DNA of 64,000 nucleotides, from assembly GCA_965204205.1 (NCBI GenBank), contig OZ241976.1, forward strand, positions 1,738,755 to 1,802,754. The letters are read 5' to 3'. Origin of the DNA: an uncultured Candidatus Binatia bacterium (GTDB taxonomy: Bacteria; Desulfobacterota; Binatia; UBA9968; JAJDTQ01). A program made the translations under genes and the position numbers. Shown piece after piece: positions 3,509 to 54,451 of the stretch (positions are counted from its first letter, which is position 1; each line of letters starts with the position of its first letter). Under the pieces are notes generated by a model, which had not been told where the DNA came from, made no database searches, and saw only the letters and a list, made by a program, of their open reading frames with translations.

Positions 3509-3537
3509 ATAGTAGTTCTTGCCCGGTTCTTTGTCAA
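3509..3537 (-). promoter_or_regulatory. sigma70-like promoter for the ThiY-like ABC operon
   Basis: On the minus strand: TTGACA (revcomp of 3532-3537), a 17-nt spacer, then TACTAT (revcomp of 3509-3514). It sits about 75 nt upstream of the ATG at 3426. Confidence 0.4.
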
Positions 3538-3568
3538 TGGCGCATCAGGGTTTCGTTCCGTGTTCCGA

Positions 3569-4954: not shown

Positions 4955-4973
4955 CTGACAGCCTCCTGATGCA

Positions 4974-4998
4974 GGGGCGGGTTTCTCGAACCCGCCCC
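4974..4998. repeat. family-B palindromic hairpin repeat (GGGGCGGGTTTCTCGAACCCGCCCC + CTACACC)
   Basis: Perfect GC-rich inverted repeat between the LLM stop and the UbiD start. Its CTA (4998-5000) is the LLM TAG stop. Related copies at 47078, 53355 and 55294. Confidence 0.6.
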
Positions 4999-5972: not shown

Positions 5973-6089
5973 TGTCCGTCACCCGTGTCGATCCTCCATG
6001 ACGCGAAACCCGAACCCGTCATCCTCGCCTTCCAGGCCGTGTCGGTTCTCTCCGTCGCTAACGGGACACGGCACTGATATCCGGCATCG

Positions 6090-8360
6090 TCATTCCGTTC
6101 CCTTGAGTTCCCCCAACGCCCGGAGAATCCGCTCCGGCGTCATGGGCAGTGTCCGCACGCGCACCCCCACGGCGTTGTAGATGGCATTGGCGATGGCCGG
6201 GGCGGGCGGTCCGAACGGCAACTCGCCAATGCCCTTGGCGCCGTAGGGGCCTTCGGAGGGGTCGCCCTCCACGAACGCCGCCTCGAGCCCTTTGGGCATC
6301 GTGCCGAAGGTGGGAAGCCGGTAGTCCACGAAATTCGGGTTAAGCACCTGGCCTCCTTCGATGGCAAGGTCCTCGAAGAGCGCGAAGCCCAGCCCCTGGG
6401 TGAGGCCGCCCTCGATCTGCTGTTGGACGCCCAGGGGGTTGATGGCCTTGCCCACGTCGTGCACCGCGAGGTACCGCAACAATTCCACGGCCCCGGTCTC
6501 CGTGTCGACCCGCACCTCGGCGACGTGGCAGCAGGCGGCGATGACCGGGGCCGCCGCCTCGTAGTCGTTGGTGACGAAGCGGGTGGCGGCCTCGTCCACG
6601 AACGCGCCCTTGCCGATGATGAGCAGGCCCTGGCGGTCGTAGGCCTCCCGCACCACCTCGTCAAAGGTCGTTTCGCCGCCGGGCTCCACCGTGGCCGCCA
6701 CACGGTCGCCGGCGAACACGAGGGTCTCGGGAGCGGCGCGCAGCATGCCCGCGGCCACCTCCGCCAGCCGCCGGCGCGCGTCGGCGGCGGCCGCCGCCAC
6801 GGCGTTGCCGCACACGTAGGTGGTGCGGCTGGCCCAGGTCCCCAGATCGAAGGGAATGACGTCGGTGTCGTTGTGGAAGATGCGGATGCGGTCCACCGAC
6901 ACGCCGAGCTGCTCGGCCGCGATCTGTGCCATGACCGTGCGCGTGCCGGTGCCGGTGTCGGCGATGGTGGCGATGATCGCCACGCTGCCGTCGCGGTCCA
7001 CCTTGACGATGGCTTCCGTGGAGTTCTGCCGGTAGTAGCGCAGGCCGGCGCCGGTCTCGGACAAGACCGCCATGCCGATGCCCGTGCGCGTCGTGCCTTC
7101 GGCGGTTCCCTTGCCCGGGCGCAACAGTTCCGTGGCACGTCCCAGGCAGGCGCGCTCGCATGGGCGCCGCAGGTTCTCGGTGCGCATCGCCACCGGGTCC
7201 AGTCCGAGCCGTTCGGCCATGGTTTCCACGATCGACTCGAAGGCGAAGGTCTCCTCGGCGTGCCCGAAGCCGCGGTAGGCGGCCCCCGGGGGCTTGTTGG
7301 TGTACACCAGCCGGGCATCCACCGACGTCGCCGGATGGTGGCGATCGTAGGACGAAAAAAAGGACATGGTGATGAAGTTGATGGTGGAGATGCCCTTGTC
7401 GTTGTAGGCGCCGTTGTCCCCCAGCACTTCCAGGCTCTTGGCGCGGATGACGCCGTCGCTGGTGCAGCCCAGCCTGAGCTTGAAGCGGTAGGCGTAGCGG
7501 GCGCCGGCACAGCGGAACTCCTCGTCCCGGGTGTTGACGATGCGCACCGGTCGGCCCCCGGACCTTCGGGACAGGGTCGCGGCGATGGGTACCATGACGT
7601 TCATCACCAGGCGGGCGCCGAAGCCACCGCCGGTCTCGGGCTGGATCACGCGCACCCGCCGCTGCGGGATGTCCAGGGTGCGGGCGATCTCCGCGCGCAG
7701 GGTGTGCGGCGCCTGGGTCTGGTGCCATACCGTGAGCTGGCCGGTGGCGCCGTACTGGGCGATGCAGCCGCGGGTCTCCATGACCGCGTGGGACTGGCGC
7801 GTGGTTTCGAACTCCTCCATCACTACCAGGTCGCAGCCGGCGAAGGCCGCCTCGACGTCTCCCTCCGTCTTGTGCACCTCGTAGGCCAGGTTGCCGCCGT
7901 CGTGGACCTCGGGAGAATCCGGCGACAGCGCGGCCTCCAGGTCCAGCACCGGCTCCAGAGGCTCGTAGTCCACCTCGATGAGACGCGCCGCTTCCTCCGC
8001 CGTGGCCTCGTCCAGCGCCGCCACCGCGGCCACCTCGTCCCCTGCGTAGCGCACCGTGCGGCCGGGCGCGCACAACGGCACCTTGTCCGCGAACTCCGGC
8101 ACGAAGCTGAACTTGATGTCCGGCATGTCGCTCGCGGTGATGATCGCGGTCACTCCGGGCAGCCGCTCCGCCCGGGAGGTGTCGATGCCGCGGATCCTGG
8201 CGTGGGGCAGGGGACTGCGCAGGACCTTGCCGTACAGCATTCCCGGCGCATGCAGGTCCTCGAGGTAGCGGGCCTCGGCGGTGACCTTGGCGGCACCTTC
8301 GACGGCGGCCGTCGGCCGGCCAATGACGTCGAGCGTGCGGCGTTGGGCGGACGTTGCCAT
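6090..8360 (-). CDS. Xanthine dehydrogenase/aldehyde oxidase family molybdopterin-binding subunit (CoxL-like)
   Basis: About 756 aa with full-length Mo-hydroxylase large-subunit similarity. Start chosen at MATSAQRR (8358-8360). No 2Fe-2S or FAD subunit genes are adjacent. Confidence 0.9.
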   Translation of the reverse strand: MATSAQRRTLDVIGRPTAAVEGAAKVTAEARYLEDLHAPGMLYGKVLRSPLPHARIRGIDTSRAERLPGVTAIITASDMPDIKFSFVPEFADKVPLCAPGRTVRYAGDEVAAVAALDEATAEEAARLIEVDYEPLEPVLDLEAALSPDSPEVHDGGNLAYEVHKTEGDVEAAFAGCDLVVMEEFETTRQSHAVMETRGCIAQYGATGQLTVWHQTQAPHTLRAEIARTLDIPQRRVRVIQPETGGGFGARLVMNVMVPIAATLSRRSGGRPVRIVNTRDEEFRCAGARYAYRFKLRLGCTSDGVIRAKSLEVLGDNGAYNDKGISTINFITMSFFSSYDRHHPATSVDARLVYTNKPPGAAYRGFGHAEETFAFESIVETMAERLGLDPVAMRTENLRRPCERACLGRATELLRPGKGTAEGTTRTGIGMAVLSETGAGLRYYRQNSTEAIVKVDRDGSVAIIATIADTGTGTRTVMAQIAAEQLGVSVDRIRIFHNDTDVIPFDLGTWASRTTYVCGNAVAAAAADARRRLAEVAAGMLRAAPETLVFAGDRVAATVEPGGETTFDEVVREAYDRQGLLIIGKGAFVDEAATRFVTNDYEAAAPVIAACCHVAEVRVDTETGAVELLRYLAVHDVGKAINPLGVQQQIEGGLTQGLGFALFEDLAIEGGQVLNPNFVDYRLPTFGTMPKGLEAAFVEGDPSEGPYGAKGIGELPFGPPAPAIANAIYNAVGVRVRTLPMTPERILRALGELKGTE

Positions 8361-8536
8361 GATCGAAGAATCGCAGAAAACCGGCTTGCATTCCAGACCG
8401 GATGTGGAATAGGCTTTCAACCCTTGGAAAATGAATGGTCTGCCCGGCCGCAAGGGATATCGAGCGATGCCCCTTCCCAACGGAGCCCCACACGCGGCAC
8501 CCCGCCCGGCAGTCGTGTCAAACGGAGGTTACATTC

Positions 8537-10270
8537 ATGAGCGACAAGAAGATTCTGAGCCGGGACAAACGGCGCTACCTGTTGCCGTCGGAGCGCGAGC
8601 TCGGGGCGGAAACCCACAGCTATCTGCCCGAGCTATGCGATCAGCTCCGCACCAAGAAAATCAACCGGCGGGACTTTTTGCGCCAAGCGGCGCTCTTGGG
8701 CATGACCGCGGGCGTAGCCTACGCCACCGCCGACAAGCTCATCGGCGGCGCTTTCGTGCCGTCCGTGCAGGCGGCCACGCCGAAACCCGGCGGGACGCTG
8801 CGGGTCTCCATGCGGATCCAGCAGGTGACCGACCCGGCGAGCTTCGACTGGACCGAGAAGTCCAACGTCGCGCGCTTCCTGGTGGAGCACCTGACCCGCA
8901 CCAAGGCGGACAACGTCACCGTTCCCTATCTCGCCGAGAAGTGGGAGGCCACCGACGACCTCAAGACCTGGGTGTTCCATCTGCGGAAGGACGTAACCTG
9001 GTCCAACGGCGACAAGTTCAACTCCGCCGATGTGGCCCACACGGTCAACCGCTGGCTCGACCCCAAGACCGGTTCCTCGAACCTCGGCCTGTTCAGCGCC
9101 ATGGTGGAGACCGTGAAAGGCCCGGACGGAAAGCCCATGAAGCGCGGCATCGCCAACGCGGTCGAGGTCATCGACGACCACACCATCCAGTTCAACCTCA
9201 AGCAGGCCGCCCTGGCCATGCCGGAGAACTTCTACAACTATCCCGCCGCCATCGTGCACCGGGGCTTCGGCAAGGACTACGCGGCCGACCTCTCCAAGAA
9301 CCCCATCGGCACCGGCCCGATGAAGCTGGAGGCGTTCGCGGTGGGCGAGAGGGCCATCCTCAAGAAGGCGCGGGAATGGTGGGCCGGACCGTTCCACCTG
9401 GACGAGATCCACTATTTTGACCACGGCGAGGACACCAACGCCTGGATCGCGGCGCTGGCGTCACAGCAGGTGGACATGGTCTACCGCCTTCCCAACGACG
9501 CCATCGACACCGTGAAACGGCTGCCCTTCGTGGACCTTCACGAAGCCACCACGGCGCAGACCGCGGTCATGCGCTTCCGCATTACCGAGAAGCCCTTCGA
9601 CAACCTCAAGCTGCGCCAGGCCATCGCCGCCTGCATGGACCACAAGGAGATCCTGGACAAGGCGTTCAAGGGACTCGGCCAGGTTGCCGAGAACCACCAC
9701 GTCTGCCCGATCCATCCGGACTACGCCGCGCTGCCGCCGCTCAAGCGGGACGTGGAAAAGGCCAAGAAGCTGCTGGCGGAGGCGGGCTACAAGGACGGCA
9801 TCACCGTCGAGATCGCCAACGGCGATACCGAAGGTCGGTGGATGACCGATGTGTGCGCGATATACAAGAACCAGCTCGCGCCCGCGGGCATCAACCTGAA
9901 GATCAACAAGATGCCGGCCAACCAGTACTGGGAGGTCTGGGACAAGGCGCCCTGGGGCTACACCGCTTGGACGCACCGTCCTCTCGGCACCATGGTGCTG
10001 GGTCTCGGTTACCGCTCCGGCGTGCCCTGGAACGAGACCGCCTACAACAACCCCAAGTTCGACGCTGCCCTCGACGACGCCGAGGCCACTCTCGACGTCA
10101 ACGAACGCAAGAAGAAGATGGCCGTCTGCGAGAAGATTCTCCAGGACGACGCCATCATCCCGCAGCCCTTCTGGCGGTCGGTCTTCAAGGCGGCGAACAA
10201 GCGGGTCAAGGGCCATCAGACCCATCCGACGCTGTATCATCAGTTCCATAACGTGTGGCTGGAAGGTTAG
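8537..10270 (+). CDS. ABC transporter substrate-binding protein, family 5 (DppA/OppA-like), Tat-secreted
   Basis: Twin-arginine signal RRDFLRQAALLGMTAGVAYA and an SBP_bac_5 fold. RBS GGAGG lies 8 nt upstream of the ATG at 8537. The longer ORF-track start at 8435 was rejected. Confidence 0.9.
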   Translation: MSDKKILSRDKRRYLLPSERELGAETHSYLPELCDQLRTKKINRRDFLRQAALLGMTAGVAYATADKLIGGAFVPSVQAATPKPGGTLRVSMRIQQVTDPASFDWTEKSNVARFLVEHLTRTKADNVTVPYLAEKWEATDDLKTWVFHLRKDVTWSNGDKFNSADVAHTVNRWLDPKTGSSNLGLFSAMVETVKGPDGKPMKRGIANAVEVIDDHTIQFNLKQAALAMPENFYNYPAAIVHRGFGKDYAADLSKNPIGTGPMKLEAFAVGERAILKKAREWWAGPFHLDEIHYFDHGEDTNAWIAALASQQVDMVYRLPNDAIDTVKRLPFVDLHEATTAQTAVMRFRITEKPFDNLKLRQAIAACMDHKEILDKAFKGLGQVAENHHVCPIHPDYAALPPLKRDVEKAKKLLAEAGYKDGITVEIANGDTEGRWMTDVCAIYKNQLAPAGINLKINKMPANQYWEVWDKAPWGYTAWTHRPLGTMVLGLGYRSGVPWNETAYNNPKFDAALDDAEATLDVNERKKKMAVCEKILQDDAIIPQPFWRSVFKAANKRVKGHQTHPTLYHQFHNVWLEG

Positions 10271-10281
10271 GAGCCTACGTT

Positions 10282-10316
10282 GCGGTGAACCCTGTAGGGG
10301 CGACCGGCCGGTGGCC
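10282..10316. repeat. REP-like hairpin between the SBP and permease genes
   Basis: CCTGTAGGGGC-(12 nt)-GCCCCTACAGG, an 11-bp perfect stem. This is the classic intra-operon position for a differential-stability element. Confidence 0.45.
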
Positions 10317-10378
10317 CCTACAGGCACCCTCCGCTTGTCCGGGTGCGCGTCCGCAACCAGGAAGCACGGGAGACTGAC

Positions 10379-11311
10379 ATGCCACAACTGATTCTGCGCC
10401 GCGTCGGCATGATGATCCTCATCATGCTGACGGTGGCGCTGCTTTTATTCCTCATGAACGAGGGCGATCCGCGGCTCATCGCCCGCAGCGTCCTGGGACC
10501 CTATGCCCAGGACCAGCAGCTTGATGCCTGGATCGTCCAGCATGGCTACGACCGCCCGATCCTGGTGCGTTACGTCGAATGGATCGGACGGGTGCTGTCC
10601 GGCGACCTCGGCGATTCCATCATCTACAAGCGCCCGGTCAACGAGATCTTCTGGGACCGCCTCGGCAATACCGGCATCCTCGCCGGCGTCACCTTCGTGG
10701 TCATGGTCGTCGTCGCTCTGACCCTGGGCGTCCTGGCCGGCATGAAGGAGGGCTCCGCCCAGGACCGGGTAATCTCGGTCTTCTCCATCACCACGACCTC
10801 CATACCGGAATATGCCAGCGCGGTGCTGCTGGCCTGGATCTTCGTCTTCGGGCTCGGCTGGCTCCCGGGCACCTCGTCCATGGTGACGGGGTTCAACGTG
10901 GTGGAGCTGATCCTGCCGGTGATGGTGTTGACCCTGTACGGTTTCGGCTACGTGGCGCGGATGACCCGGGCCTCCATGGCGGAAGTGATGACCAACCACT
11001 ACATCCGCACCGCCATGCTCAAGGGGCTGCCGTACCGCCACATCATCATGAAGCACGCGCTCCGCAACGCGCTGATCGCTCCGTTCACGGTCATCATGCT
11101 GCAGATCAACTGGCTCTTGTCCGGGGTGGTGGTGACCGAGTTCGCCTTCGGCTACAAGGGGTTCGGCGCGCTGCTGCTGGAGGCGGCGCTGCGCCGGGAC
11201 ATCTTCGTGATCGAGGCCTGCGGCACGGCGGCGGTGTTCGTGGCAGTCTTCACCCAGACCATCGGCGACGTCGGGTACACCTACCTGAACCCGAGAATCC
11301 GGTTCAAGTGA
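10379..11311 (+). CDS. ABC transporter permease (DppB/OppB-like)
   Basis: Multi-TM protein with a BPD_transp_1 signature. Start moved to MPQLILRR. Confidence 0.85.
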   Translation: MPQLILRRVGMMILIMLTVALLLFLMNEGDPRLIARSVLGPYAQDQQLDAWIVQHGYDRPILVRYVEWIGRVLSGDLGDSIIYKRPVNEIFWDRLGNTGILAGVTFVVMVVVALTLGVLAGMKEGSAQDRVISVFSITTTSIPEYASAVLLAWIFVFGLGWLPGTSSMVTGFNVVELILPVMVLTLYGFGYVARMTRASMAEVMTNHYIRTAMLKGLPYRHIIMKHALRNALIAPFTVIMLQINWLLSGVVVTEFAFGYKGFGALLLEAALRRDIFVIEACGTAAVFVAVFTQTIGDVGYTYLNPRIRFK

Positions 11312-11321
11312 GGAGGCGCAA

Positions 11322-12215
11322 ATGGCTACCGATACTGAAAGCGCACCTCTCGTAAGGCCGGATTCGACCATCGTCAACGCGGTCAAGGCCATGGCCCTCC
11401 TGCGGGAGAGCCCGGTGGGCATGGTGGGCGCGTTGATCGTCGTCTTCTTCGTCCTGTTGGCGATCTTCGCACCCCTGGTGTCGCCCTACGACCCCAACGC
11501 GACGATCCTGCCTTTTGCCTTCCCGGGCACGGCGGCCCCGGACGGCGGACTGTTCCTGTTCGGCACCGACCACCTGGGGCGCGACATCCTTTCGCGCATC
11601 ATCTGGGGCGGTCAACGGGTATTGTTCTACGCCACCCTGGCCACCGTTTCCGCCTATATCGTCGGAATCGTCATGGGTCTGGCGGCCGGCTATTTCCGCG
11701 GCTACCTCGACGAGATCATTTCGTTCTTCGCCAACGTGATTCTCTCCTTTCCGATCATGGTCCTGTACGTGCTGATCATCGCCAAGGTCGGTGCCTCCGG
11801 GCTCAACATCGTCTTCGCGGTCGTGTTCGCGTCCGCACCGGGCATCATGCGCATCGTGCGCGGCGTCACCATGGACATCGCCACCCGGGACTACATCGCC
11901 GCCTCCCAGACCCGCGGCGAGGGTCCCTGGTACATCATGCTGGTGGAGATCCTGCCCAACGCCCGCAGCCCGCTGATCGTCGATTTCTGCCTGCGCATGG
12001 GCTACACGACCATCACCATCGGGGCGCTGGGGTTCCTGGGCCTCGGGCTGCCCCCGCCGGATCCCGACTGGGGCGGCATGATCACCGAGACCCGCGCCTT
12101 CGTGACCGGCGGCTTCCCGCACATGGCGATCCTTCCCGCGTGCGCGGTTTCCTTGTTGGTGCTGGGTTTCAACCTGCTGGCCGACGGGCTGCGGGAAGTG
12201 TCTCTGAAGGACTAG
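11322..12215 (+). CDS. ABC transporter permease (DppC/OppC-like)
   Basis: 297-aa multi-TM permease following DppB-like. Confidence 0.85.
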   Translation: MATDTESAPLVRPDSTIVNAVKAMALLRESPVGMVGALIVVFFVLLAIFAPLVSPYDPNATILPFAFPGTAAPDGGLFLFGTDHLGRDILSRIIWGGQRVLFYATLATVSAYIVGIVMGLAAGYFRGYLDEIISFFANVILSFPIMVLYVLIIAKVGASGLNIVFAVVFASAPGIMRIVRGVTMDIATRDYIAASQTRGEGPWYIMLVEILPNARSPLIVDFCLRMGYTTITIGALGFLGLGLPPPDPDWGGMITETRAFVTGGFPHMAILPACAVSLLVLGFNLLADGLREVSLKD

Positions 12216-12225
12216 GAGAAACGTC

Positions 12226-14349
12226 ATGGCCGAATATAGCGAAGAGGCGCCGGTCCTCGAGATTTCCGGTCTCCGGCTCAGTTACTACACCCGGGCCGGC
12301 GAAATTCCCGCGGTAATGGACTTCGATCTCACCATACGGAAGGGCGAATCCGTCGGTCTGGTGGGCGAGTCCGGGTGCGGCAAATCCACCGTGGCCAACG
12401 GAATCATGCGCTACATGGGCAAGAACGGCGGCATCGTCGGCGGCACCATCAAGTTCAAGGGCCGGGACATGGCGGAGCTGAGCGAGGAGGAGATCCGGCG
12501 GGTCCGCGGCAAGGACATCGCCATGATCTACCAGGAGCCCATGGCCGCGCTCAATCCGAGCCTGACCATCGCCGCGCAGCTCATGGAAGTGCCTATGATC
12601 CACGAGGGGGTGAGTCAGGAAGAAGCCTTCCAGCGCGCCTTCGACATGCTGGCGGCGGTGAACATCCCAGACCCGAAACGCCTCATGGACTCCTACCCGC
12701 ACCAGGTCTCCGGCGGCCAGCAACAGCGCGTGGTGATCGCCATGGCGCTGCTTTCGCGGCCGGCGCTGCTGTTGCTGGACGAGCCCACCACGGCCCTGGA
12801 CGTCACGGTGGAGGCGGGGATCGTGGAGCTGATCGCCGAGTTGAGCAAGGAGTCCGGCGCGTCATTGCTGTACATCTCCCACAACCTCGGCCTGATGCTC
12901 GAAGTCTGTGACCGCATCTGCGTGATGTACTCGGGCGAGGTGGTGGAGGAAGGCCACATCGACTCCATCTTCTCCTGGCCCAAGCACCCCTACACCCACG
13001 GGCTGTTCGGCTGCATCCCGCTGCCCCACGCCGACAAGAATGCTCGCCCGCTCGCGGCCATCAAGGGGCAATTGCCGCTACCGCACCAGCGCCCCAAGGG
13101 TTGCTATTTCGGCCCGCGTTGCGAGTTCTTCGAGCCCGGCCGTTGCGACAACGACCATATTCCGATGGAGGGGGTGCACACCGATGACGATCCCGCGCAC
13201 CGGGTGCGTTGCCTGCGTTGGAACGAGATCGACCACGACGCCGCGGTAAGCAGCGACACCATCCGCGAGCCCATCGAGGTGGGTGATACGGTTCTCGAAG
13301 TCGACAACATGCGCAAGTACTACGACGTCAAGGAGAGCACGCTGGCGGCGCTCATCTCTCAGGAATCGGTGCGCCAGGTCAAGGCCAACGAAAGCATCAG
13401 CTTCGACGCCGGAGAAGGGGAGACCGTGGCCATCGTCGGCGAGTCGGGCTGCGGCAAGTCCACCTTCGCCAAGGTGCTGATGGGCCTGGAAACCGCCACC
13501 GACGGCGAGGTGCGCCTCGACGGCACCGACCTCGGCAGCATCGAGGTCAAGAAGCGCACCCCGGAGCAACTCGCGTCCTTGCAGATGGTGTTCCAGAACC
13601 CCAACGACACCCTCAACCCGTCCCACTCCGTCGGCTACCAGATCGGGCGGGTCATCAAGCGGTTCGGCATCGAGTCCGATCCGGCCAAGATCCAGGACCG
13701 GGTCCACAAGCTGCTGGACACGGTCAAGCTGCCGCGCGCCTTCGCCCACCGCAAGCCGCGCCAGCTCTCGGGCGGACAGAAACAAAGGGTGGGCATCGCC
13801 CGCGCCTTCGCCGGCAACCCCAAGACCGTCATCGCCGACGAACCCATCTCCGCGCTGGACGTGTCGGTGGCGGCGGCGGTGACCGAGCTGCTGATGGACA
13901 TCCAGCGCGAGCACCGCACCACGCTGCTGTTCATCAGCCACGACCTGTCCGCGGTGCGCTACCTCTCCGACCGCGTGGTGGTCATGTACCTCGGACAGAT
14001 CATGGAGCGGGGGACCACCGAGGAAGTATTCGCGCCGCCCTATCATCCCTATACGGAAGCGCTGCTCTCGGCGGTGCCCATCGCCGACCCGGAAGTGGAG
14101 AAACGCCGCATCGTGCTGGAAGGGAACCTGCCGAGCCCGTTGGACCCACCCAAGGGCTGCCCGTTCTCCACCCGCTGCCAGCGAAAGGTCGGCGACATCT
14201 GCGACAACGAGCCGCCCCCGGTACGGCTCGACACCGAGGGGCATTCCATCGCCTGCCACATCCCGCTGGAGGAGCTGCGCGAGGTGGAGCCGGTGATCAC
14301 CATCCCGGACCGGGATCTGGGCGGCGAGGGCAAACCCGCGGTGGTTTGA
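12226..14349 (+). CDS. Fused ABC transporter ATP-binding protein (DppD-DppF-like, two NBDs)
   Basis: Two Walker A motifs (GESGCGKST twice), two LSGGQ(Q/K)QR signatures and C-terminal oligopeptide-ATPase Cys motifs. Confidence 0.9.
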   Translation: MAEYSEEAPVLEISGLRLSYYTRAGEIPAVMDFDLTIRKGESVGLVGESGCGKSTVANGIMRYMGKNGGIVGGTIKFKGRDMAELSEEEIRRVRGKDIAMIYQEPMAALNPSLTIAAQLMEVPMIHEGVSQEEAFQRAFDMLAAVNIPDPKRLMDSYPHQVSGGQQQRVVIAMALLSRPALLLLDEPTTALDVTVEAGIVELIAELSKESGASLLYISHNLGLMLEVCDRICVMYSGEVVEEGHIDSIFSWPKHPYTHGLFGCIPLPHADKNARPLAAIKGQLPLPHQRPKGCYFGPRCEFFEPGRCDNDHIPMEGVHTDDDPAHRVRCLRWNEIDHDAAVSSDTIREPIEVGDTVLEVDNMRKYYDVKESTLAALISQESVRQVKANESISFDAGEGETVAIVGESGCGKSTFAKVLMGLETATDGEVRLDGTDLGSIEVKKRTPEQLASLQMVFQNPNDTLNPSHSVGYQIGRVIKRFGIESDPAKIQDRVHKLLDTVKLPRAFAHRKPRQLSGGQKQRVGIARAFAGNPKTVIADEPISALDVSVAAAVTELLMDIQREHRTTLLFISHDLSAVRYLSDRVVVMYLGQIMERGTTEEVFAPPYHPYTEALLSAVPIADPEVEKRRIVLEGNLPSPLDPPKGCPFSTRCQRKVGDICDNEPPPVRLDTEGHSIACHIPLEELREVEPVITIPDRDLGGEGKPAVV

Positions 14350-14500
14350 AGCACCACGGGCGCCTTGGCGAAGCGGGGCAAGCCGGACGCGCCTCCGGCG
14401 GTTGATCTCCCGGCGGCCGGCAATGTTTTGCATCCGGGAGCGAAGGTGGTAGTTTTGCCGTTGGAACCAGTGCGCCAAAATTCCATCAAGGGAGAAGAAC

Positions 14501-15523
14501 ATGGGGAAGATCGACGCGACCGTTAAGGTAATCGACGCGGACGCCCACGCCCGGGACAACGACGACTTGGTGAAGCCGTTCCTGGGGGAGGCATTCCAGA
14601 ACCGGCGGCCACCGTTCATTCCACGGGAAACCTACGACCGCAACCTCGGCGGAACCCTCGGGCATGCGGGCATCAAGCACGAGGAACGCCTTGCCGCCAT
14701 GGACACGCAGGAAATCCACACCGCGGTCATGTACCCGACCAGCGGTCTGGGCATCGGCCGCATCCGCGAGCCCGGCTACCAGACACAATTGTGCCGCGCT
14801 TACAACGAGTTCATCGCCGACTACTGCAAGGTCTCCCCGCGTCTCAAGGCGGTGGCGAACCTGCCCGTCAATGCTCCGGACACGGCCGCCGAGGAGTTGC
14901 GGTACGCGGTGGCCGAGCTGGGTTTGGTCGGCGGCATGCTGGCGGCCCAGGGCCACGGCAAAAACTTCGGCTCGTCCGAGTACTTCCCGCTCTACGAAGA
15001 GGCGCAGAAGCTCAATACTCCGCTGGCCATCCATGCCTTCGGCGGCGACGAGCCCGGCAGCGAGATCTTCGACCAGTTCATTTCCATCCACACCACCGGA
15101 CACCCGTTCCCGGTGCTCCGGCAGCTCACCGGCATGATCTTCGCCGGCGTCCCCGAGCTGTTCCCCGACCTGAAGCTCGGCTTTCTCGAGATCGGCTGCG
15201 GCTGGATCCCGTACTGGTCGGACCGCATGGACGAAGAGTGGGAGAAGCGCGGCGCGGTGGAGGCCCCGGAGTGCAAGAAGGAGCCCAGCCACTACATCAC
15301 CAGCAAGAACGTGTACTATGGCTGCGAGCCCGACGAGAAGACCATCGGCTACGTGGTGGGGGAAATCGGCTCCGAGACCATCATGTACGCGTCCGACTAC
15401 CCCCATTGGGACATGAGCTGGCCGGAATCCGGTTCGCTCATCTGGGCGCGGGACGACCTCTCGCTGGAAGCCAAGCAGAACATACTGGGGGACAACGCCC
15501 GGCGCTTCTACGGCCTCGACTGA
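14501..15523 (+). CDS. Amidohydrolase-2 family metal-dependent hydrolase/decarboxylase (ACMSD-like)
   Basis: 340 aa with an N-terminal DADAH metal motif and amidohydrolase_2 fold similarity. RBS GGGAGAAG precedes it. Confidence 0.85.
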   Translation: MGKIDATVKVIDADAHARDNDDLVKPFLGEAFQNRRPPFIPRETYDRNLGGTLGHAGIKHEERLAAMDTQEIHTAVMYPTSGLGIGRIREPGYQTQLCRAYNEFIADYCKVSPRLKAVANLPVNAPDTAAEELRYAVAELGLVGGMLAAQGHGKNFGSSEYFPLYEEAQKLNTPLAIHAFGGDEPGSEIFDQFISIHTTGHPFPVLRQLTGMIFAGVPELFPDLKLGFLEIGCGWIPYWSDRMDEEWEKRGAVEAPECKKEPSHYITSKNVYYGCEPDEKTIGYVVGEIGSETIMYASDYPHWDMSWPESGSLIWARDDLSLEAKQNILGDNARRFYGLD

Positions 15524-15665
15524 AAGCAGCCGACCGGTTGCGATCCGTCCGGCTTTCAAGTAACTAACTGACTTCGTTGAAGGAATCCTTCAGTTGCCGA
15601 CGCCACGCGGCGCCGGCAACGGTCGCCTTCGGCGTAAATTCCACGTGATTCAGGGAGCACATTCG

Positions 15666-16415
15666 ATGGCTTTATCCGGTGACGCCTTTGTTCAGGAAAT
15701 CCAGGACGCGGTCCGCTCAAAGCACTCCAAGGACAACCCTATCATCGGGATGATCGAGAGGGGCGAGATCGACCGGGAGGCGCTCAAGGGGTTCGTCGGC
15801 CAGTTCTATCTCTTCTTCCCCAAGCCCTTCCCGAAGCCCATCGCCGCCATGCTCGGACGTTGCCCCGACGACCCGGAGCTGGAAAGGATGTGGATCGAGA
15901 ACGTGGTGGAGGAGGGCACCGGCGAGATCTCCGGCACCGACAGCCACCGGGGCCTCTTCATCCGCTTCGCCATGGCCTGCGGCTTCGAGTCCAAGGCCGA
16001 GCTGGACGCGGTCCAGCCGTTGCCCGAGACGTCCGCGTTCCTCGACTGGAGAGAGCTGCTGATGTATCAGCGTTCATGGCTCGAGCTTTTCGCATGCCAG
16101 GGTTTTTGCCTCGAAGGAACCGCCAGCGAGCGCATGGCCCGCATCGTCACCGGCCTGACCACCCACTACGGCTTTGACCGAGAGAGCGAGGACATCCGCT
16201 ACTGGACCCTGCACATGGGGGTTGACGAGGAGCACATGAAGGTAGGTCCGGAGGCGGTGCGGAAATACGCCGTCACCGAGCAACAACAGGAAACGGTACG
16301 CCAGTCCGTGCACAAGACCCTGGACCAGTTCTGGCTGGCCTTCGACGGCATCAAGCGGGCGTACGTGGACAAGGATCCGATTTACGCCGCCTGGCGCAAC
16401 GGGGCTTCGGCTTGA
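15666..16415 (+). CDS. TenA/PqqC/CADD-family heme-oxygenase-like protein with a putative diiron ligand set
   Basis: Start at MALSGDAF with RBS GGGAG. Candidate ligands are E-x6-H (GEISGTDSH), a Glu in CLEG about 56 aa later, and H-x3-D-x2-H (HMGVDEEH). This matches CADD-like spacing. Confidence 0.7.
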   Translation: MALSGDAFVQEIQDAVRSKHSKDNPIIGMIERGEIDREALKGFVGQFYLFFPKPFPKPIAAMLGRCPDDPELERMWIENVVEEGTGEISGTDSHRGLFIRFAMACGFESKAELDAVQPLPETSAFLDWRELLMYQRSWLELFACQGFCLEGTASERMARIVTGLTTHYGFDRESEDIRYWTLHMGVDEEHMKVGPEAVRKYAVTEQQQETVRQSVHKTLDQFWLAFDGIKRAYVDKDPIYAAWRNGASA

Positions 16416-16442
16416 CGCTCCGGACGCTTTAGGAACACGACC

Positions 16443-17093
16443 ATGGCCATGATCGATCTTTCGCGGATCATCTACGACGGCATGCCCAAGATCCCGGTGC
16501 TCCCGGACGTGCACGTGCAACGGTTCTTCGACCTCGGGAAGGGCCATCCGCTCAACGTCACCGAGATCAACCTGCCGTGCCACGCCGGCACCCACGTGGA
16601 CGCGCCGGTCCACATCGTCCCCGACGGGAAATCCATCGAGGAACTGGACCTCGATGCATTCGTCGGACCGGGTGCGGTCATCTCGGTGGAGAAGGGCGGT
16701 GGAGAGGAAGTCACCGCGGCGGATCTCGAAGGCTCCGGAGTCCCGGTCGACCGGGGCGATATCCTCATGCTGCACACGGGATGGGACGAGAAATTCGAAA
16801 GCGAAGAATACAATCTGCACCCCTATCTCTCCGTCGATGCGGCCGAATGGATGGTCGAGCGCGGGGTGAAGCTGTTCGGCATCGACTGCATCACGGTGGA
16901 CCTGCCGACACCATTGCGACCCAAGGGGTTCGACTTCCCGGTGCACCGGACGCTGCTCGGAAACGACGTCCTGATCGCGGAGAACGTAACCAACCTCGCT
17001 GCCATCGCGGGCCGGAAGAGCCGCATCATGGCGTTGCCCCTCAAGGTGCAGGGCAGTGACGCGGCCCATGCGAGAATCGTCGCGGAGGTCTAG
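16443..17093 (+). CDS. Cyclase-family protein (kynurenine formamidase-like metal hydrolase)
   Basis: 216 aa with putative cyclase / KynB fold similarity and an HxGTHxDxPxH-like motif (CHAGTHVDAPVH). Confidence 0.85.
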   Translation: MAMIDLSRIIYDGMPKIPVLPDVHVQRFFDLGKGHPLNVTEINLPCHAGTHVDAPVHIVPDGKSIEELDLDAFVGPGAVISVEKGGGEEVTAADLEGSGVPVDRGDILMLHTGWDEKFESEEYNLHPYLSVDAAEWMVERGVKLFGIDCITVDLPTPLRPKGFDFPVHRTLLGNDVLIAENVTNLAAIAGRKSRIMALPLKVQGSDAAHARIVAEV

Positions 17094-17169
17094 GCAAAAT
17101 TTGAGACGACTTCTCCCGGAAAGACGGCAACTTCCTGTGATTGTTATCAAATCCGAATCGAGGTGATGG

Positions 17170-18135
17170 ATGCTGGCAAGCCCCATCAGAGGAATCATCG
17201 GAGCCGCGCTGACCCCGTTCACGGACGACGGCAAGGTGGACTACGACGCCCTGGCGCGCGAGATCGAATTTCTCGTAGCGGATTGCGACGCCATCTCCGT
17301 GGTCGCCGTCGAGGCCTCCGAGTACACGGTGCTGTCCCTCCAGGAGCGCAAGGAAGTGATGCGCCACGCCACCGAGATCGTCAACAAGCGCGTGCCGGTC
17401 ATTCTCGGAGCGTCGAGCCATTCCATCGAGACGGTTCTCGACCTGTCGGACCACGCGGCCGCGGTGGGTGGCGACCTGATCCAGGTGCTGATGCCGATCC
17501 GCCCGTGGGGCGGCCAGCCGACCATCGCGGACCTGGTGCAGTTTTTCACCGAAGTGGCCTCGGTCAGCCCGCTGCCCATCGTCGCCTACCACAACCCCGG
17601 TCCGGGCGCCGACCCGCCGCTGGACGCCTTCGTGCGGCTTAGCGAGCTCGAGAAGGTCGACTACTTCAAGGAGAGCTCGCGCGACATCACCAAGATCACG
17701 CGCCTCATCGAGCAGATTCACCTGGCCGGCAAGGCCAACTACTTCACCACCATGCAGCCGCTGCTGACGACCCTCATGATGGGGGGCGCCGGCGCCACCA
17801 TGCCGCCGCCGGGAACGCGCATCGGCGCCAGGGTGGTGCGCGCTTTCCGGGAGGGTGACATCGACAGGGCGCGCTACTGGCAGCGCTGTTTCACGCTGTT
17901 TCCGGGAAAGTGGGGCGCCTACGGCCTGCCGCCGATCATGAAATCCGCCCTCAAGCACTTCGGTGTCGACATCGGCGACCCGGCCCGGCCTTACGCGCCG
18001 GTGAGTCCCCGGGACCATGCCCAGATCGGACAGTTCCTGACCCAGATCGGCATCCTGGGAGACGGCGAGCCGGATGAGGCGGCTTTTGACGAGGCGGCGG
18101 TCCAGCTCGCCCAGGACGACACCTTCCTCCGGTAA
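17170..18135 (+). CDS. Dihydrodipicolinate synthase/N-acetylneuraminate lyase family (class I aldolase)
   Basis: 321 aa with DapA-family similarity. RBS GAGGTGA precedes it. Confidence 0.85.
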   Translation: MLASPIRGIIGAALTPFTDDGKVDYDALAREIEFLVADCDAISVVAVEASEYTVLSLQERKEVMRHATEIVNKRVPVILGASSHSIETVLDLSDHAAAVGGDLIQVLMPIRPWGGQPTIADLVQFFTEVASVSPLPIVAYHNPGPGADPPLDAFVRLSELEKVDYFKESSRDITKITRLIEQIHLAGKANYFTTMQPLLTTLMMGGAGATMPPPGTRIGARVVRAFREGDIDRARYWQRCFTLFPGKWGAYGLPPIMKSALKHFGVDIGDPARPYAPVSPRDHAQIGQFLTQIGILGDGEPDEAAFDEAAVQLAQDDTFLR

Positions 18136-18141: not shown

Positions 18142-18348
18142 ATGTCCGGCGGCCTCTTCACGTGGATCGCGGAGCAGATCAAGGCCTGCTCCGATTTTCT
18201 GGTGCTGCTCCTGATCCGCGGCACCTCGCGGTTCGAATCGGAGCTGACCGACGAAGGACGGCAGGAACAGCGCATGTGGCGGGACCGGCGCATGCGTAGC
18301 CTCAAGGGGCTCGCCCTGCGCGCCAGGCGGCGGCAGAAGGCGTCCTGA
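18142..18348 (+). CDS. Small hypothetical protein (68 aa; hydrophobic N-terminal half, Arg-rich C-terminus)
   Basis: RBS AAGGAG lies 4 nt upstream of the ATG. GC3 bias matches the neighbouring genes, and the ORF is tightly packed between the aldolase and SQR genes. Confidence 0.45.
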   Translation: MSGGLFTWIAEQIKACSDFLVLLLIRGTSRFESELTDEGRQEQRMWRDRRMRSLKGLALRARRRQKAS

Positions 18349-18375: not shown

Positions 18376-19371
18376 ATGCACTACCACAACGGACGCAAGC
18401 AGATCGTGGTGCTCGGCGGCGGCAGCGGCGGTATCGTCGCCGCCACCAAGCTCGGCCGGACCCTGGGCGCGGACCACGACATCATCCTCATCGACCGGCG
18501 CGCCGACCATGTCTACATGCCGGCTTTCCTGTTCGTGATGGTGGGGCAGAGACGTCCGGAGGACATCACGCGAAGGCTCAAGCGCCTGGAGAAACGCAAC
18601 ATCCGGGTCCTCCAGGCGGAGATCCTGGGGATCGATCCCGGGCGCCAGCAAGTCATCCTGGAAAGCACCGCCATCCCCTACGACTATCTGATCGTGTCCC
18701 TGGGCCTCGAAGTCAGGCCCGACCTGCTTCCGGGTTTCGCCGAAGGGGCGCATCACCCCTGGGAGATGGACGCGGCCCTGCGCCTCAAGACCACCCTGGA
18801 CAACTTCCGGGAGGGGCGCGTGCTGGTGGGTGTGCCGCAAGGCCCTTACCGCTGCCCGCCGGCGCCATACGAAGCCCAATGGATGCTCGACAGCTACTTC
18901 AAGGAACGCAACATCCGTGACCTGGTGGACCTGCAGTACTTCACCCGGGAGCCCGAACCCGCCGGGGAGGAACACATGCCCTCGGTGTGGATGGACGCCC
19001 AGAGCAAGAAGCGCGACGTCACCATCCATTACGACTTCATCGTGCAGTCCATCGATGCCGAGCGTAAGCGCGTCAAGGGCCTCTACGGCTACGAGCTTTC
19101 CTACGACCTGTTGTTCATGGTGCCGCCGCACCGCCCCTCCCGGGTACTTTACGACTGCGGGCTGGCGGAACGGGAGACCGGCATCCAGGTGGACTACGAC
19201 ACTCTGGAAACCAAGTGGGACAACGTCTACGCCATCGGCGACAATGCCGACATGCCGGCCTCTAAGGCCGGCGGCGTGGCACACCAGGAAGCCGACGTGG
19301 TGGCGGACAACCTGGTGGCGGAAATCACCGGGGAAGGGGAGTTGTCCACACTGCACCTCCACACCATATGA
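18376..19371 (+). CDS. Sulfide:quinone oxidoreductase-like FAD-dependent oxidoreductase. The conventional ORF ends at an in-frame TGA (see feature 19369-19533)
   Basis: N-terminal VVLGGGSGG FAD motif, a CPPAPYE motif resembling the SQR Cys160 region, and a YAIGD second FAD motif. The 331-aa conventional product lacks the C-terminal membrane-anchor region. Confidence 0.85.
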   Translation: MHYHNGRKQIVVLGGGSGGIVAATKLGRTLGADHDIILIDRRADHVYMPAFLFVMVGQRRPEDITRRLKRLEKRNIRVLQAEILGIDPGRQQVILESTAIPYDYLIVSLGLEVRPDLLPGFAEGAHHPWEMDAALRLKTTLDNFREGRVLVGVPQGPYRCPPAPYEAQWMLDSYFKERNIRDLVDLQYFTREPEPAGEEHMPSVWMDAQSKKRDVTIHYDFIVQSIDAERKRVKGLYGYELSYDLLFMVPPHRPSRVLYDCGLAERETGIQVDYDTLETKWDNVYAIGDNADMPASKAGGVAHQEADVVADNLVAEITGEGELSTLHLHTI

Positions 19372-19533
19372 CTGCTCTCATGCGGCGCGGGACGCGCCGC
19401 CGCCAACCGCACCACCTACCCTCAGGGATGGCCGCCCTTCGGCGCCACCGACTCACGGTCCTGGGGCCCGTCCCGCATGATCTACTGGAGCAAGGTCCTG
19501 TTCGAGAAATGGTGGCTCTGGCGTTACTTCTGA
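19369..19533 (+). other. Putative UGA-recoded (selenocysteine?) C-terminal extension of the SQR-like gene
   Basis: The same frame as the SQR remains open for 53 codons after TGA 19369-19371. Its translation is LLSCGAGRAAANRTTYPQGWPPFGATDSRSWGPSRMIYWSKVLFEKWWLWRYF, ending at TGA 19531-19533. The W/K/F-rich amphipathic tail is typical of monotopic SQR anchors. Confidence 0.4.
19382..19400 (+). promoter_or_regulatory. SECIS-like GC hairpin downstream of the in-frame UGA
   Basis: GCGGCGCG-GGA-CGCGCCGC, an 8-bp perfect stem that begins 10 nt after the UGA. Its apical loop is about 19-21 nt after the UGA. Confidence 0.3.
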
Positions 19534-19550: not shown

Positions 19551-19632
19551 GGCCTGTCCTGAGCCCTTCGACAGGCCTGTCCTGAGCTTGTCGAAGGGCT
19601 CAGGCCAGGCGTAACGAAGCGAAGACGAAGGA
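19551..19632. repeat. family-A MITE-like palindromic repeat (CCTGTCCTGAGC...GCTCAGG...GAAGCGAAGACGAAGGAC)
   Basis: Tandem/inverted copies of GTCCTGAGCCCTTCGACAGGC lie between the SQR-tail stop and the PDO start. Seven related copies occur elsewhere in the window. Confidence 0.6.
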
Positions 19633-19634: not shown

Positions 19635-20672
19635 ATGATCCTCAGAGAGCTCAACGGCGAGAGTTGCAAAACCTATCTGATAGCAGATGAGGGAAGGGGA
19701 TGCGCCGTCCTGGTGGACCCCCTTCACGCCCACGTGGACCGTTATCTCGCGGTGCTGGCCTACCACCGCCTCGAACTGGACCTCGTCATCGACACGCACA
19801 CACACGCCGATCATCTCAGCGGAGGCCCGCAGTTGCGGTTCCTGGTCGGATCGCGGTTCGCCATGCAGAAATGGGCGCCGAGCCCGGCCGTCGACGTCCA
19901 TCTGGAAGAAGGCGAGGAAGTTCCGATCGGTAACTTGGCATTGCGCGTCCTGCACACGCCGGGACATACCCCAGACGGCATGAGTCTCGTGGTGGAAGGC
20001 AACGTGCTCACCGGCGACACCCTGTTCATCGGCGGCTCCGGCCGCACCGACTTCGCCGGCGGCGATGCCGGCGCCCAGTTCGACGCGGTGACCCGGAAGC
20101 TGTTCACGCTGCCGGACGAGACCATCGTACGGCCGGGGCACGACTACCGCGGCAACACCACCTCTACCATCGGCCAGGAAAAGCGCACCAATCCCCGGCT
20201 TGCGAACCGCACCCGCGAGGAATACATCGACCTCATGAACAACCTCGGACTCTCGCCGCCCCAGAACATCCAGGAGGTCCTCCAGCCCAACCAATCCGCC
20301 CTCGGCACCGGGGATATCAGCTTTCCGGACTGGAGCGAGCTCAAGAAGGTCCGGGAAATCGACGTCCAGGGACTCCATCGAATGCTGGCGTCGGATACGC
20401 AACCGCTGCTGGTGGACGTGCGCGAGCCGGGAGAGTACACGGGCGAACTCGGCCACCTGTCCGGCAGCCTGCTCATTCCGCTACGCGAGCTCGTGAACCG
20501 CCTTGACGAGATCGACGAACACAAGGGTGAACCGGTGGTGACCGTCTGCCGCGCCGGCATGCGCAGCGCCACCGCGGCGGCCATTCTCGAGCGATCCGGC
20601 TTCACCGACGTCTCCAACCTTGCCGGCGGCCTGCTGGCGTGGAACGAAGCCGCGCTGCCGGTGGAACGCTAG
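19635..20672 (+). CDS. Persulfide dioxygenase (ETHE1-type MBL fold) fused to a C-terminal rhodanese domain
   Basis: HxHxDH motif DTHTHADH plus a rhodanese active loop CRAGMRS. Confidence 0.85.
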   Translation: MILRELNGESCKTYLIADEGRGCAVLVDPLHAHVDRYLAVLAYHRLELDLVIDTHTHADHLSGGPQLRFLVGSRFAMQKWAPSPAVDVHLEEGEEVPIGNLALRVLHTPGHTPDGMSLVVEGNVLTGDTLFIGGSGRTDFAGGDAGAQFDAVTRKLFTLPDETIVRPGHDYRGNTTSTIGQEKRTNPRLANRTREEYIDLMNNLGLSPPQNIQEVLQPNQSALGTGDISFPDWSELKKVREIDVQGLHRMLASDTQPLLVDVREPGEYTGELGHLSGSLLIPLRELVNRLDEIDEHKGEPVVTVCRAGMRSATAAAILERSGFTDVSNLAGGLLAWNEAALPVER

Positions 20673-20719
20673 GAATCGGAATCGGACTCCGATCAAAGCC
20701 ACTCGAGATCCCTCCGGTC

Positions 20720-21064
20720 ATGGCAACCAAACCGAACCGCCCGCGCCGCTATCCCGACTGGGAGAACACCTGCAACTACTGCCTGTACCTTCAACCCATG
20801 CCGCGCGGCACAGGCTCGGGAAACTGCACCTACCACCGCCAATGGATCCAGCGAGCCGCCTTCAGCACCTGCAGCGACATGAGCGCCCAGCGGTTGGAAG
20901 AGGGCATCTACACCCTCACCACCAGCGCCTACGGCACCTGGACCTACCACCGCCGCCGCGAACCCGCCCGGACACGGCTGTTTCTCGTACCCGCCCGGCC
21001 AGCCGCCGACACCGAGACCCCCAACACGGAAACCCCGCCGCGCACCAAGAAACGAATGACCTGA
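20720..21064 (+). CDS. Hypothetical small Cys-containing protein (CNYC...C...C). The C-terminus is low-complexity
   Basis: About 85% GC3 across the frame. It is co-directional and lies 48 nt after the PDO-rhodanese gene. It has a weak RBS and a P/T/R-rich tail that overlaps a CA-rich tract. Confidence 0.35.
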   Translation: MATKPNRPRRYPDWENTCNYCLYLQPMPRGTGSGNCTYHRQWIQRAAFSTCSDMSAQRLEEGIYTLTTSAYGTWTYHRRREPARTRLFLVPARPAADTETPNTETPPRTKKRMT

Positions 21065-54410: not shown

Positions 54411-54451
54411 GCAACCACCTGTTTCGAAGGTAATCCCGCCTCCTCCGCATG

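Follow-up and report, generated by a model that had tools for sequence, protein, structure and literature searches.

A plus-strand gene array in a 64,000-nucleotide stretch of DNA from an uncultured Candidatus Binatia bacterium (assembly GCA_965204205.1, contig OZ241976.1, positions 1,738,755–1,802,754; hereafter the window) is predicted to be an oxygenase-based small-molecule operon in which each protein falls in a known superfamily and none in a characterized orthogroup. We favor, at roughly an even chance of being right, an explanation in which genome rearrangement has brought three layers together on one strand, a core operon, a putative amidohydrolase-related dinuclear oxygenase (ARO) and an importer, which would form an O2-dependent route for a small nitrogen-containing acid. 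The first layer would be a core operon found throughout the sampled Binatia and encoding a dimetal protein of the heme-oxygenase-like HDO family, a cyclase-family amide hydrolase, a protein resembling dihydrodipicolinate synthase (DHDPS), a 68-residue protein and a selenocysteine (Sec)-containing flavoprotein resembling type III sulfide:quinone reductase (SQR). The ARO would be a second layer, placed directly upstream of the core in some lineages and in the position of the HDO in three loci, and a Dpp/Opp-type importer with a family-5 solute-binding protein (SBP5) exported by the twin-arginine translocation (Tat) system would be a third, inserted upstream of the ARO in the close clade of the window only.

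The gene at 14501–15523 (+ strand) encodes a protein of the Amidohydro_2 family (PF04909, 5e-31, 109 bits) that has zero NCBIfam model matches and that a preliminary description of this DNA, made from the sequence alone, had read as an ACMSD-like amidohydrolase. AROs within PF04909 are defined by an N-terminal D-x-H motif and a C-terminal D-x-P-H-x-D/E motif with ~200 residues before the latter, and the two motifs are stated to be absent from every characterized hydrolase and decarboxylase with this fold (Liu et al. 2026, PMC13154177). The window protein matches this definition, with D14-A-H16 on its first β-strand (VIDAD14-A-H16ARD), D299-Y-P-H-W-D304 near its C terminus and at least ~200 residues preceding the second motif; D12, D14, H16 and the complete C-terminal motif do not vary among 12 relatives, whose identity goes as low as 64%. 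Because both ARO-defining motifs are present and invariant, the protein is most likely a putative Fe/Mn dinuclear oxygenase and not a hydrolase or decarboxylase. Its six best Protein Data Bank matches are PtmU3 (2e-27), AibH2 (1e-23), SfbO (8sm6) and entries 8sm7, 8sm8 and 8sm9, the last three deposited only as amidohydrolases and taken by us to be AROs of the SfbO deposition series, and ACMSD, in which the N-terminal metal motif is H-x-H, comes next at 3e-17. We rejected an ACMSD-type decarboxylase or hydrolase on the presence of D-x-H and D-x-P-H-x-D and on the rank of ACMSD behind six ARO or presumed-ARO structures. The protein shares the PF04909 TIM barrel and both motifs with the known AROs (AibH1H2, SfbO, PtmU3, DitZ and BarH-like proteins), among which PtmU3, AibH2 and SfbO are its best solved matches, but is at most 27% identical to characterized members and has neither an adjacent Rieske ferredoxin nor an AibH1-like second subunit in the window.

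We fetched 80 species-level genome loci encoding HDO relatives and tallied their neighbors by tblastn. The ARO gene lies directly upstream of the HDO gene in 23 of 23 close-clade loci, separated from it by a spacer usually of ~160 nt (13–18 nt in loci L007 and L014), and most loci outside this clade have no ARO beside the HDO. Three loci (L090, L091 and L094) carry an ARO gene (75–76% identity) followed directly by the cyclase gene with no HDO; the DHDPS-like gene, a small open reading frame (ORF) and the SQR gene come after the cyclase in L090 and L091, and the L094 contig ends within the cyclase. An identity matrix of AROs revealed no separate cyclase-linked subfamily. We regard these gene neighborhoods, together with the second type of cluster described next, as moderate evidence that the ARO and an HDO-type enzyme act on related chemistry, and the two may substitute for each other at this locus. 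ARO orthologs with 66–77% identity to that of the window also occur in a different conserved cluster, in ~22 metagenome loci and in the metagenome-assembled genome locus L093. This alternative cluster (L092, L093, L097–L147) is widespread and uncharacterized and comprises, in this order, one or more SsuA-family binding proteins, a 388-residue Amidohydro_2 protein that may serve as an AibH1-like partner, the ARO, a PRK08327-like thiamine-diphosphate enzyme and a CADD-like HDO 25% identical to the window HDO; L092 additionally encodes sulfopyruvate-decarboxylase-like split subunits that score below cut-off.

The HDO gene (15666–16415, +; PF14518 Haem_oxygenas_2, 5.4e-22) begins at ATG 15666 (MALSG, with GGAG 8 nt upstream) and not at TTG 15594, the start of a longer frame, as determined by alignment of 80+ orthologous starts. 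Residues E83, H94, E150, H183, D187 and H190 align to CADD E81, H88, E142, H174, D178 and H181, and all six of these dimetal ligands (3His/3carboxylate) are invariant in 16 sequences. An AlphaFold2 model (pLDDT 89.4), for which the top Foldseek matches are CADD (TM 0.78–0.90), PqqC, BesC and UndA, predicts a seven-helix heme-oxygenase-like fold. CADD/NePabS proteins share this fold and the identical ligand set and give the best sequence and structure match, but the window HDO is only ~22% identical to CADD, lacks the sacrificial Tyr and Lys, and is embedded in an operon with small-molecule enzymes as CADD is not. Assignment as a CADD-type self-sacrificing p-aminobenzoate synthase was rejected, since in the HMMER alignment Tyr27 and Lys152 of CADD are both replaced by Ile, the columns are not kept as Tyr/Lys, and TIGR04305 scores 69.3 bits against a 200-bit cut-off. 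PqqC was likewise rejected (TIGR02111, 49.1 against 240 bits), and Pfam and NCBIfam scans of nearby genes revealed no pqq genes. Reactions known for HDOs include C–C scission, desaturation, N-oxygenation and rearrangements of amino or fatty acids (PMC13108848). The family of the window HDO is small, with 19 representatives at E < 1e-30 among 1.84 billion, and tblastn found no homolog in 72,556 plasmids; homolog searches with the HDO and the DHDPS-like protein returned almost only Binatia orthologs and no informative names. Of the two nearest HDO outgroups that were looked up, one lies on a contig too short to inform and the other in an amide-hydrolase-rich neighborhood. Genes near related HDOs encode amide and amidine hydrolases (M24, Amidohydro_1/2, amidase), cupins, an IclR regulator and ABC transporters; such neighborhoods favor catabolism of a nitrogen-rich small molecule.

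Downstream of the HDO, the cyclase-family gene (16443–17093, +; PF04199, 4.9e-35) encodes a predicted metal-dependent amide hydrolase of the KynB/isatin-hydrolase type. The HxGTHxDxPxH metal motif (CHAGTHVDAPVH), kept in 76 orthologs, is shared with KynB and isatin hydrolase together with a downstream His and Glu and a size of ~210 residues, whereas the closest solved relative of the window protein is not KynB but the uncharacterized metal-dependent hydrolase 8hmo. Membership in the KynB orthogroup was rejected on a TIGR03035 score of 99.2 bits against a 223-bit cut-off, with the metal motif placing the protein in the superfamily only, and tryptophan dioxygenase and kynureninase genes were not found among the neighbors examined. 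The next gene (17170–18135, +; PF00701, 6.5e-33) encodes a divergent member of the DHDPS/N-acetylneuraminate-lyase family of Schiff-base enzymes. Like the class I aldolases DapA, YagE, HOGA1 and KdgD, this protein has the PF00701 TIM barrel, a Schiff-base Lys (FK167ESS) and a YxxPG Tyr (AY140HNPG), both invariant and equivalent to DapA Lys161 and Tyr133; for DapA residues we use the E. coli numbering throughout. In contrast to the PF00701 subfamilies, the universal G-[ST]-[ST]-G-E motif (GTTGE in DapA) is replaced by an invariant V-E-A-[S/A]-E, PWGG stands in place of PYYN, no Arg follows YHNPG, and the protein is about equally distant from all characterized subfamilies (E ~1e-25 to 1e-29). 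This change in the motif that binds the carboxylate speaks against a standard pyruvate aldolase. We rejected DapA itself on a TIGR00674 score of 91.8 bits against a 206-bit cut-off and on the absence of GTTGE (Thr44/Thr45), Tyr107 and Arg138, and a reversed DHDPS reaction on reduced dipicolinate, prompted by a neighboring cluster of molybdenum (Mo) hydroxylase, luciferase-like monooxygenase (LLM) and UbiD genes, was dropped because Arg138, which binds aspartate semialdehyde, and the Thr44/Tyr107 triad are missing. Not one of the four enzymes attains an NCBIfam equivalog cut-off, in agreement with the view in the preliminary description that they match no canonical pathway; the kynurenine-like logic proposed there fails at the cyclase, which falls far below the KynB cut-off, at the DHDPS-like protein, which lacks Thr44/Thr45, Tyr107 and Arg138, and at the HDO, which lacks Tyr27 and Lys152. 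Neither a characterized ortholog with a known substrate nor a published account or annotated record of this gene combination was found in the literature on the enzyme combination, PF14518, Binatia and Sec-SQR, among NCBIfam models or on plasmids.

The array had been described as ending at 18135 but continues through two further conserved genes, one for the 68-residue protein (18142–18348, +) after 6 nt and one for the SQR-like flavoprotein (18376–19533, +) after another 27 nt. The 68-residue protein (MSGGLFTWIAEQIK...LRARRRQKAS) has zero Pfam or NCBIfam matches and is recognized by ortholog conservation: 69 of 69 loci have a homolog placed between the DHDPS-like gene and the SQR gene, with the motif LSD..L..LR.TS.FG.ELT.EGR.EQ..WREQRLRNLKGL kept across them, and in the rearranged locus L005 a homolog stands upstream of the SQR gene too. 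The SQR reading frame meets a TGA codon at 19369–19371 and continues through a conserved 53-codon extension to 19533, and 68 of 68 loci share the in-frame TGA, followed by a peptide that is conserved as well. A GGCGC/GCGCC hairpin at 19382–19400, 13 nt 3′ of the TGA, is invariant even at synonymous sites and resembles a selenocysteine insertion sequence (SECIS) element. When the UGA is read through, Sec takes the place of the C-terminal redox cysteine within an H-T-I-U (HxxU) motif, and HxxU is a listed motif of type III SQRs of the selenoprotein subtype (PMC13188914). The window gene thus has each feature of that subtype, a UGA in HxxU, a downstream ORF and a hairpin, and is predicted to encode a selenoprotein. 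The subtype model NF049943 is also the best NCBIfam match, covering model positions 1–381 when the UGA is read through, but the score of 259.7 bits lies below the cut-off of 525; the window SQR differs from the subtype further in being always preceded by the conserved 68-residue protein. Directly after the SQR stop codon lies a long perfect REP-like palindrome (19552–19610, strand not assigned) with a fold z-score of −6.8, none of 200 shuffles being as stable, and it may terminate the transcript or mark the end of the unit. The REP-like element (CCTGAGCCCTTCGACAGGC and its reverse complement) occurs in the window as three inverted pairs (19558–19604, 29661–29740 and 41269–41315) against 0.05 matches expected.

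The HDO, cyclase and DHDPS-like genes, followed by the SQR-like gene, are collinear on one strand in nearly every locus long enough to show it, the first three in ~70 loci and the block including the 68-residue protein and SQR in 69; the context of HDO and cyclase orthologs is a conserved five-gene core, which stands without an importer in most loci. Median gaps in the wider clade are 14 nt between HDO and cyclase and 15 nt between cyclase and DHDPS, and identity to the window proteins is 78–84% for the HDO and 76–84% for the cyclase, compared with 62–69% for MiaB. Such housekeeping-like conservation favors a constitutive role, and the alternative that survives best, although we consider it unlikely at about one chance in five, is that the HDO, cyclase and DHDPS-like enzymes carry out a housekeeping biosynthesis or repair function, supplying, for example and by analogy with CADD, an aromatic amine or a quinone or cofactor precursor, with the ARO, importer and SQR as mere neighbors. 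Consistent with this proposal, the genes around the block are housekeeping genes and in most loci include neither a regulator nor a transporter, CADD is the closest characterized homolog of the HDO, and cyclase-family enzymes such as KynB deformylate aryl-formamides, a reaction that would free an arylamine. However, the Ile substitutions at the CADD Tyr27 and Lys152 positions and the TIGR04305 score of 69 against 200 bits speak against a CADD-like function, the cyclase or HDO has been lost in some genomes, and close HDO relatives (56–75% identity) occur in catabolic-looking contexts: beside an IclR regulator, an ABC transporter and an LLM gene in L087, M24/creatinase-like and cupin genes in L005, L086 and L175, and an AMP-ligase in L088. 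Parts of the core stay linked even where the locus has been rearranged. In L005 the cyclase, M24 creatinase-like and cupin genes are divergent from the HDO, with the small ORF and SQR 3 kb away, and in L086 the cyclase and M24 creatinase-like genes are divergent from it; L001–L003 have an HDO–DHDPS–2-hydroxyacid dehydrogenase (2-Hacid_dh) arrangement in an unrelated neighborhood.

The invariable presence of the SQR and its small partner after the DHDPS-like gene in 69 of 69 loci, and near the HDO and cyclase in the rearranged L005, raises the alternative of an organosulfur route in which a sulfur amino-acid derivative or sulfonate is degraded, sulfide is set free by the DHDPS-like enzyme or at another step, and its oxidation falls to the Sec-SQR together with a metallo-β-lactamase (MBL)–rhodanese fusion. 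The fusion gene (19635–20672, +; Lactamase_B and Rhodanese, persulfide-dioxygenase/glyoxalase II-like) follows the palindrome and is adjacent to the core in the window clade, L004, L079 and L090, on the plus strand in the close clade and on the minus strand in the three other loci. ARO orthologs are habitually found beside SsuA-family binding proteins of the aliphatic sulfonate type, one such transporter lies at 733–3426 in the window, and among characterized AROs are SfbO, whose substrates are aminoethylsulfonates, and decarboxylases of thiazoline/thiazolidine carboxylates (PMC10811679, PMC13154177). We nonetheless judge an organosulfur route improbable: the adjacency may be plain conserved synteny, the HDO and DHDPS-like genes stand without SQR in L001–L003, no desulfurizing enzyme family was identified, sulfonate cleavage yields sulfite and not sulfide, and SsuA-family proteins bind many non-sulfur ligands.

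The importer, in turn, is confined to the close clade of the window. Its SBP5 gene (8537–10270, +; SBP_bac_5, 1.9e-77) starts at 8537 (MSDKK...), and this start and the twin-arginine motif RRDFLRQAALLG (RRDFLRQ) with the hydrophobic stretch behind it are kept in the 20 orthologs whose N terminus lies inside the fetched DNA; the N terminus thus fits a Tat signal, though ~45 conserved residues precede the motif. This N-region (8537–8680, +; MSDKKILSRDKRRYLLPSERELGAETHSYLPELCDQLRT) is unusually long and holds a second RR pair before the twin-arginine motif. The gene is followed by those for a DppB/OppB-type permease (10343–11311, +; BPD_transp_1, 3.6e-28, with BPD_transp_1_N from residue 13), for which ATG 10379 is the probable start, a DppC/OppC-type permease (11322–12215, +; BPD_transp_1, 9.6e-24, with OppC_N) and a 707-residue fused DppD–DppF-type double ATPase (12226–14349, +) with two ABC_tran and two oligo_HPY stretches, both halves of which match NCBIfam dipeptide/oligopeptide ATPase models. 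These components, a family-5 binding protein, two permeases and oligo_HPY ATPase C-termini, are those of the Dpp/Opp/Nik-type importers, including that of the opine-binding AgaA, from which the system differs by the fusion of both ATPases in a single protein and by the Tat-type signal and long conserved N-region of the binding protein. The best PDB matches of the SBP5 are the uncharacterized 5u4o and 8upi, followed by AgaA, OppA and DppA, and equivalog-level identity to DppA, OppA, NikA, GsiB or CntA is lacking; since the protein falls far below the cut-off of every NCBIfam equivalog (Opp4A, NikA, DppA, OppA and GsiB; best Opp4A, 153 against 650 bits), the ligand cannot be named.

These genes had been read with the enzymes as a single co-transcribed catabolic operon in which the Dpp-type system takes up a heterocycle or amino-acid derivative (kynurenine-, picolinate- or nicotinate-like, or a dipeptide) and four enzymes degrade it by deformylation, ring decarboxylation or hydrolysis, and aldol cleavage. 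Gene content, order, the plus strand and the tight same-strand packing were confirmed by the ORF list and Pfam, and so were the broad family assignments: all eight genes share a strand, with gaps of 72–108, 10, 10, 151, 142, 27 and 76 nt from SBP5 through the DHDPS-like gene, so that the proposed range of 27–142 nt holds for the enzyme genes with the HDO start at 15666 and is exceeded by the 151 nt between the ATPase and Amidohydro_2 genes. In 18 species-level genomes the importer, Amidohydro_2 and HDO genes are collinear, and 16 of these genomes also have the cyclase; such an arrangement is not due to chance, and the neighboring minus-strand Mo-hydroxylase/LLM/UbiD cluster suggests (hetero)aromatic acid metabolism. 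A scan for σ70 promoters and terminators revealed no promoter-like or terminator-like site within 8.5–18.1 kb, which is weak evidence for this phylum; the single terminator-like match of the scan lies in the 68-residue ORF, against 8.6 expected by chance. Contiguity nevertheless breaks down among relatives: the importer is absent from all wider-clade loci that keep the enzymes, from L013, where a 1997-residue fn3/Calx-beta protein gene stands upstream of the ARO, and from L019 and L025, where the divergent Mo-hydroxylase–LLM–UbiD cluster abuts the ARO, and in L007 (4516–8690) McrBC and an opposite-strand YhgA-like transposase separate the importer ATPase gene from the ARO by 4.6 kb. With importer and enzymes separable in this way, with ARO orthologs elsewhere paired with SsuA/NMT1-type and not family-5 binding proteins, with ARO and not decarboxylase motifs in the Amidohydro_2 protein, and with none of the KynB, DapA, CADD or PqqC assignments holding, one dedicated import-and-degradation operon is a doubtful account of the locus. 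The same synteny touches the question of separate transcription units, in that the importer is missing or interrupted in relatives. The preliminary description thus holds at the level of families, packing and the non-canonical character of the set, and gives way on the single module, the ACMSD assignment and the kynurenine logic. We view the importer as a recent and dispensable neighbor that may feed the pathway in this genome.

The region upstream of the HDO is labile in evolution: its genes vary between loci, and the 200 nt before the HDO are not conserved outside the close clade. In L004 and L079, a flavin reductase, DUF1178, a small Cys-rich ORF and an EF-G-like gene immediately precede the HDO on its strand, and L004 has a valyl-tRNA synthetase gene further upstream. 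In the window the corresponding genes lie on the minus strand within 53404–64000, ~37 kb downstream and inverted, as flavin reductase (53404–53901), DUF1178 (53973–54455), the small Cys-rich ORF, the EF-G-like gene and valyl-tRNA synthetase. This inverted placement points to inversion of a large chromosomal segment, one breakpoint being immediately 5′ of the HDO start. The ARO–HDO spacer holds a stem-loop (15575–15634, +), kept across close relatives, in which an outer stem CGUUGAAGG/CCUUCRRCG surrounds a variable GC-rich hairpin, with a conserved block GGTTGCGATCCGTCCGGCTTTCAAGTAACTAA on its 5′ side. The stem-loop appears in both the minimum free energy and centroid structures (z = −1.7), and pairing of its outer stem holds in 85% of cells across 19 genomes (slid controls, at most 46%), with weak covariation; RNAalifold on the spacer did not recover the hairpin, and the manual pair counts lend it modest support. 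The element could be a promoter or operator with a leader structure, or a terminator lacking a U-tract. Rfam at gathering thresholds matched nothing in the window, and hence no known riboswitch hints at a ligand.

Returning to the three-layer explanation, we infer from superfamily knowledge a set of chemical steps, a substrate class and a feeding route by the importer that would fit the observed architecture, active-site residues and conservation. The substrate would be a small nitrogen-containing, possibly sulfur-containing, organic acid. The ARO would hydroxylate an aliphatic C–H bond of this small polar substrate, as AibH1H2 and SfbO hydroxylate aliphatic C–H bonds of small polar substrates (PMC10811679), and the HDO would perform a second O2-dependent oxidation by C–C scission, desaturation or N-oxygenation. 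The cyclase-family enzyme would then hydrolyze the resulting formamide, lactam or amide, the DHDPS-like enzyme would form a Schiff base through Lys167 with the carbonyl product before cleavage or elimination, and the Sec-SQR would oxidize sulfide to quinone-linked sulfane sulfur and pass electrons to quinone.

Several observations weigh against this scheme. No Rieske ferredoxin or other reductase is present beside the ARO within the window, and SQR handles sulfide, yet no sulfide-releasing step was identified. Since the canonical carboxylate-binding GxxGE is missing from the DHDPS-like protein, this enzyme may catalyze something other than an aldolase reaction. The cyclase is missing between the HDO and DHDPS-like genes in L008 and L012 of the close clade and in the Binataceae-type L001–L003, which suggests a hydrolase step that is dispensable or supplied elsewhere, and L090, L091 and L094 lack the HDO, so that the locus has no strictly obligatory enzyme. 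In most Binatia loci the core stands without an adjacent ARO, transporter or regulator, which suits a housekeeping function better than inducible catabolism, and MiaB, a BFN-domain gene and a TPR gene also remain syntenic, indicating that synteny within the class can persist between uncoupled genes. A bolder form of the scheme, in which the ARO and HDO as unrelated dimetal oxygenase scaffolds act in tandem, or interchangeably as metal-dependent alternatives, at the head of a Binatia-wide O2-dependent degradation of an amino-acid-derived, possibly organosulfur, compound, with the 68-residue partner protein and the Sec-SQR encoded by its last genes, strikes us as a long shot.

Further genes in the window flank the array. 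A region at 20639–21064 (+), 3′ of the MBL–rhodanese gene, shows protein-level conservation (40–83% identity in 32 related loci) and contains a Cys-rich stretch (YPDWENTCNYCLY...NCTYH); its counterpart lies directly after the SQR gene in the wider clade, and it has no family match and poor coding statistics. The divergent minus-strand cluster at 733–8363 encodes a Mo large subunit resembling xanthine dehydrogenase and 4-hydroxybenzoyl-CoA reductase, near which small and medium subunits are lacking; its other products are an F420-type LLM oxidoreductase, a UbiD-family decarboxylase and an NMT1/SsuA-type ABC transporter. Genes for the Mo-hydroxylase, LLM and UbiD proteins adjoin the ARO divergently in L019 and L025 and co-directionally in L094, where they precede it on the same strand. 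On the minus strand at 55336–58086 are a γ-glutamyltransferase gene scoring 357.5 bits, just below the TIGR00066 cut-off of 357.85, and a second Amidohydro_2 gene, whose product starts with IDFQSH and so lacks the ARO D-x-H.

Three features set the predicted operon apart: tandem dimetal oxygenases on unrelated scaffolds, a DHDPS-like enzyme without the carboxylate-binding motif, and a fixed link to a small protein and a Sec-SQR. A reaction is known for approximately a dozen HDOs and a handful of AROs, nearly all from natural-product biosynthesis (PMC13108848, PMC13154177), whereas conservation of the HDO family described here exceeds that of MiaB throughout an entire uncultured class that abounds in soils and sediments; the family is part of a fixed operon and is repeatedly associated with an ARO. 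For annotation, the window ARO is a warning against taking "amidohydrolase 2" genes that encode both D-x-H and D-x-P-H-x-D for hydrolase or decarboxylase genes in pathway reconstruction. Were the tandem or interchangeable ARO–HDO route to prove real, it would pass released sulfide to the quinone pool and constitute the first catabolic or primary-metabolic role of an HDO. Identification of the substrate would give the HDO and ARO superfamilies a primary-metabolic or catabolic function, and the Binatia a trait.

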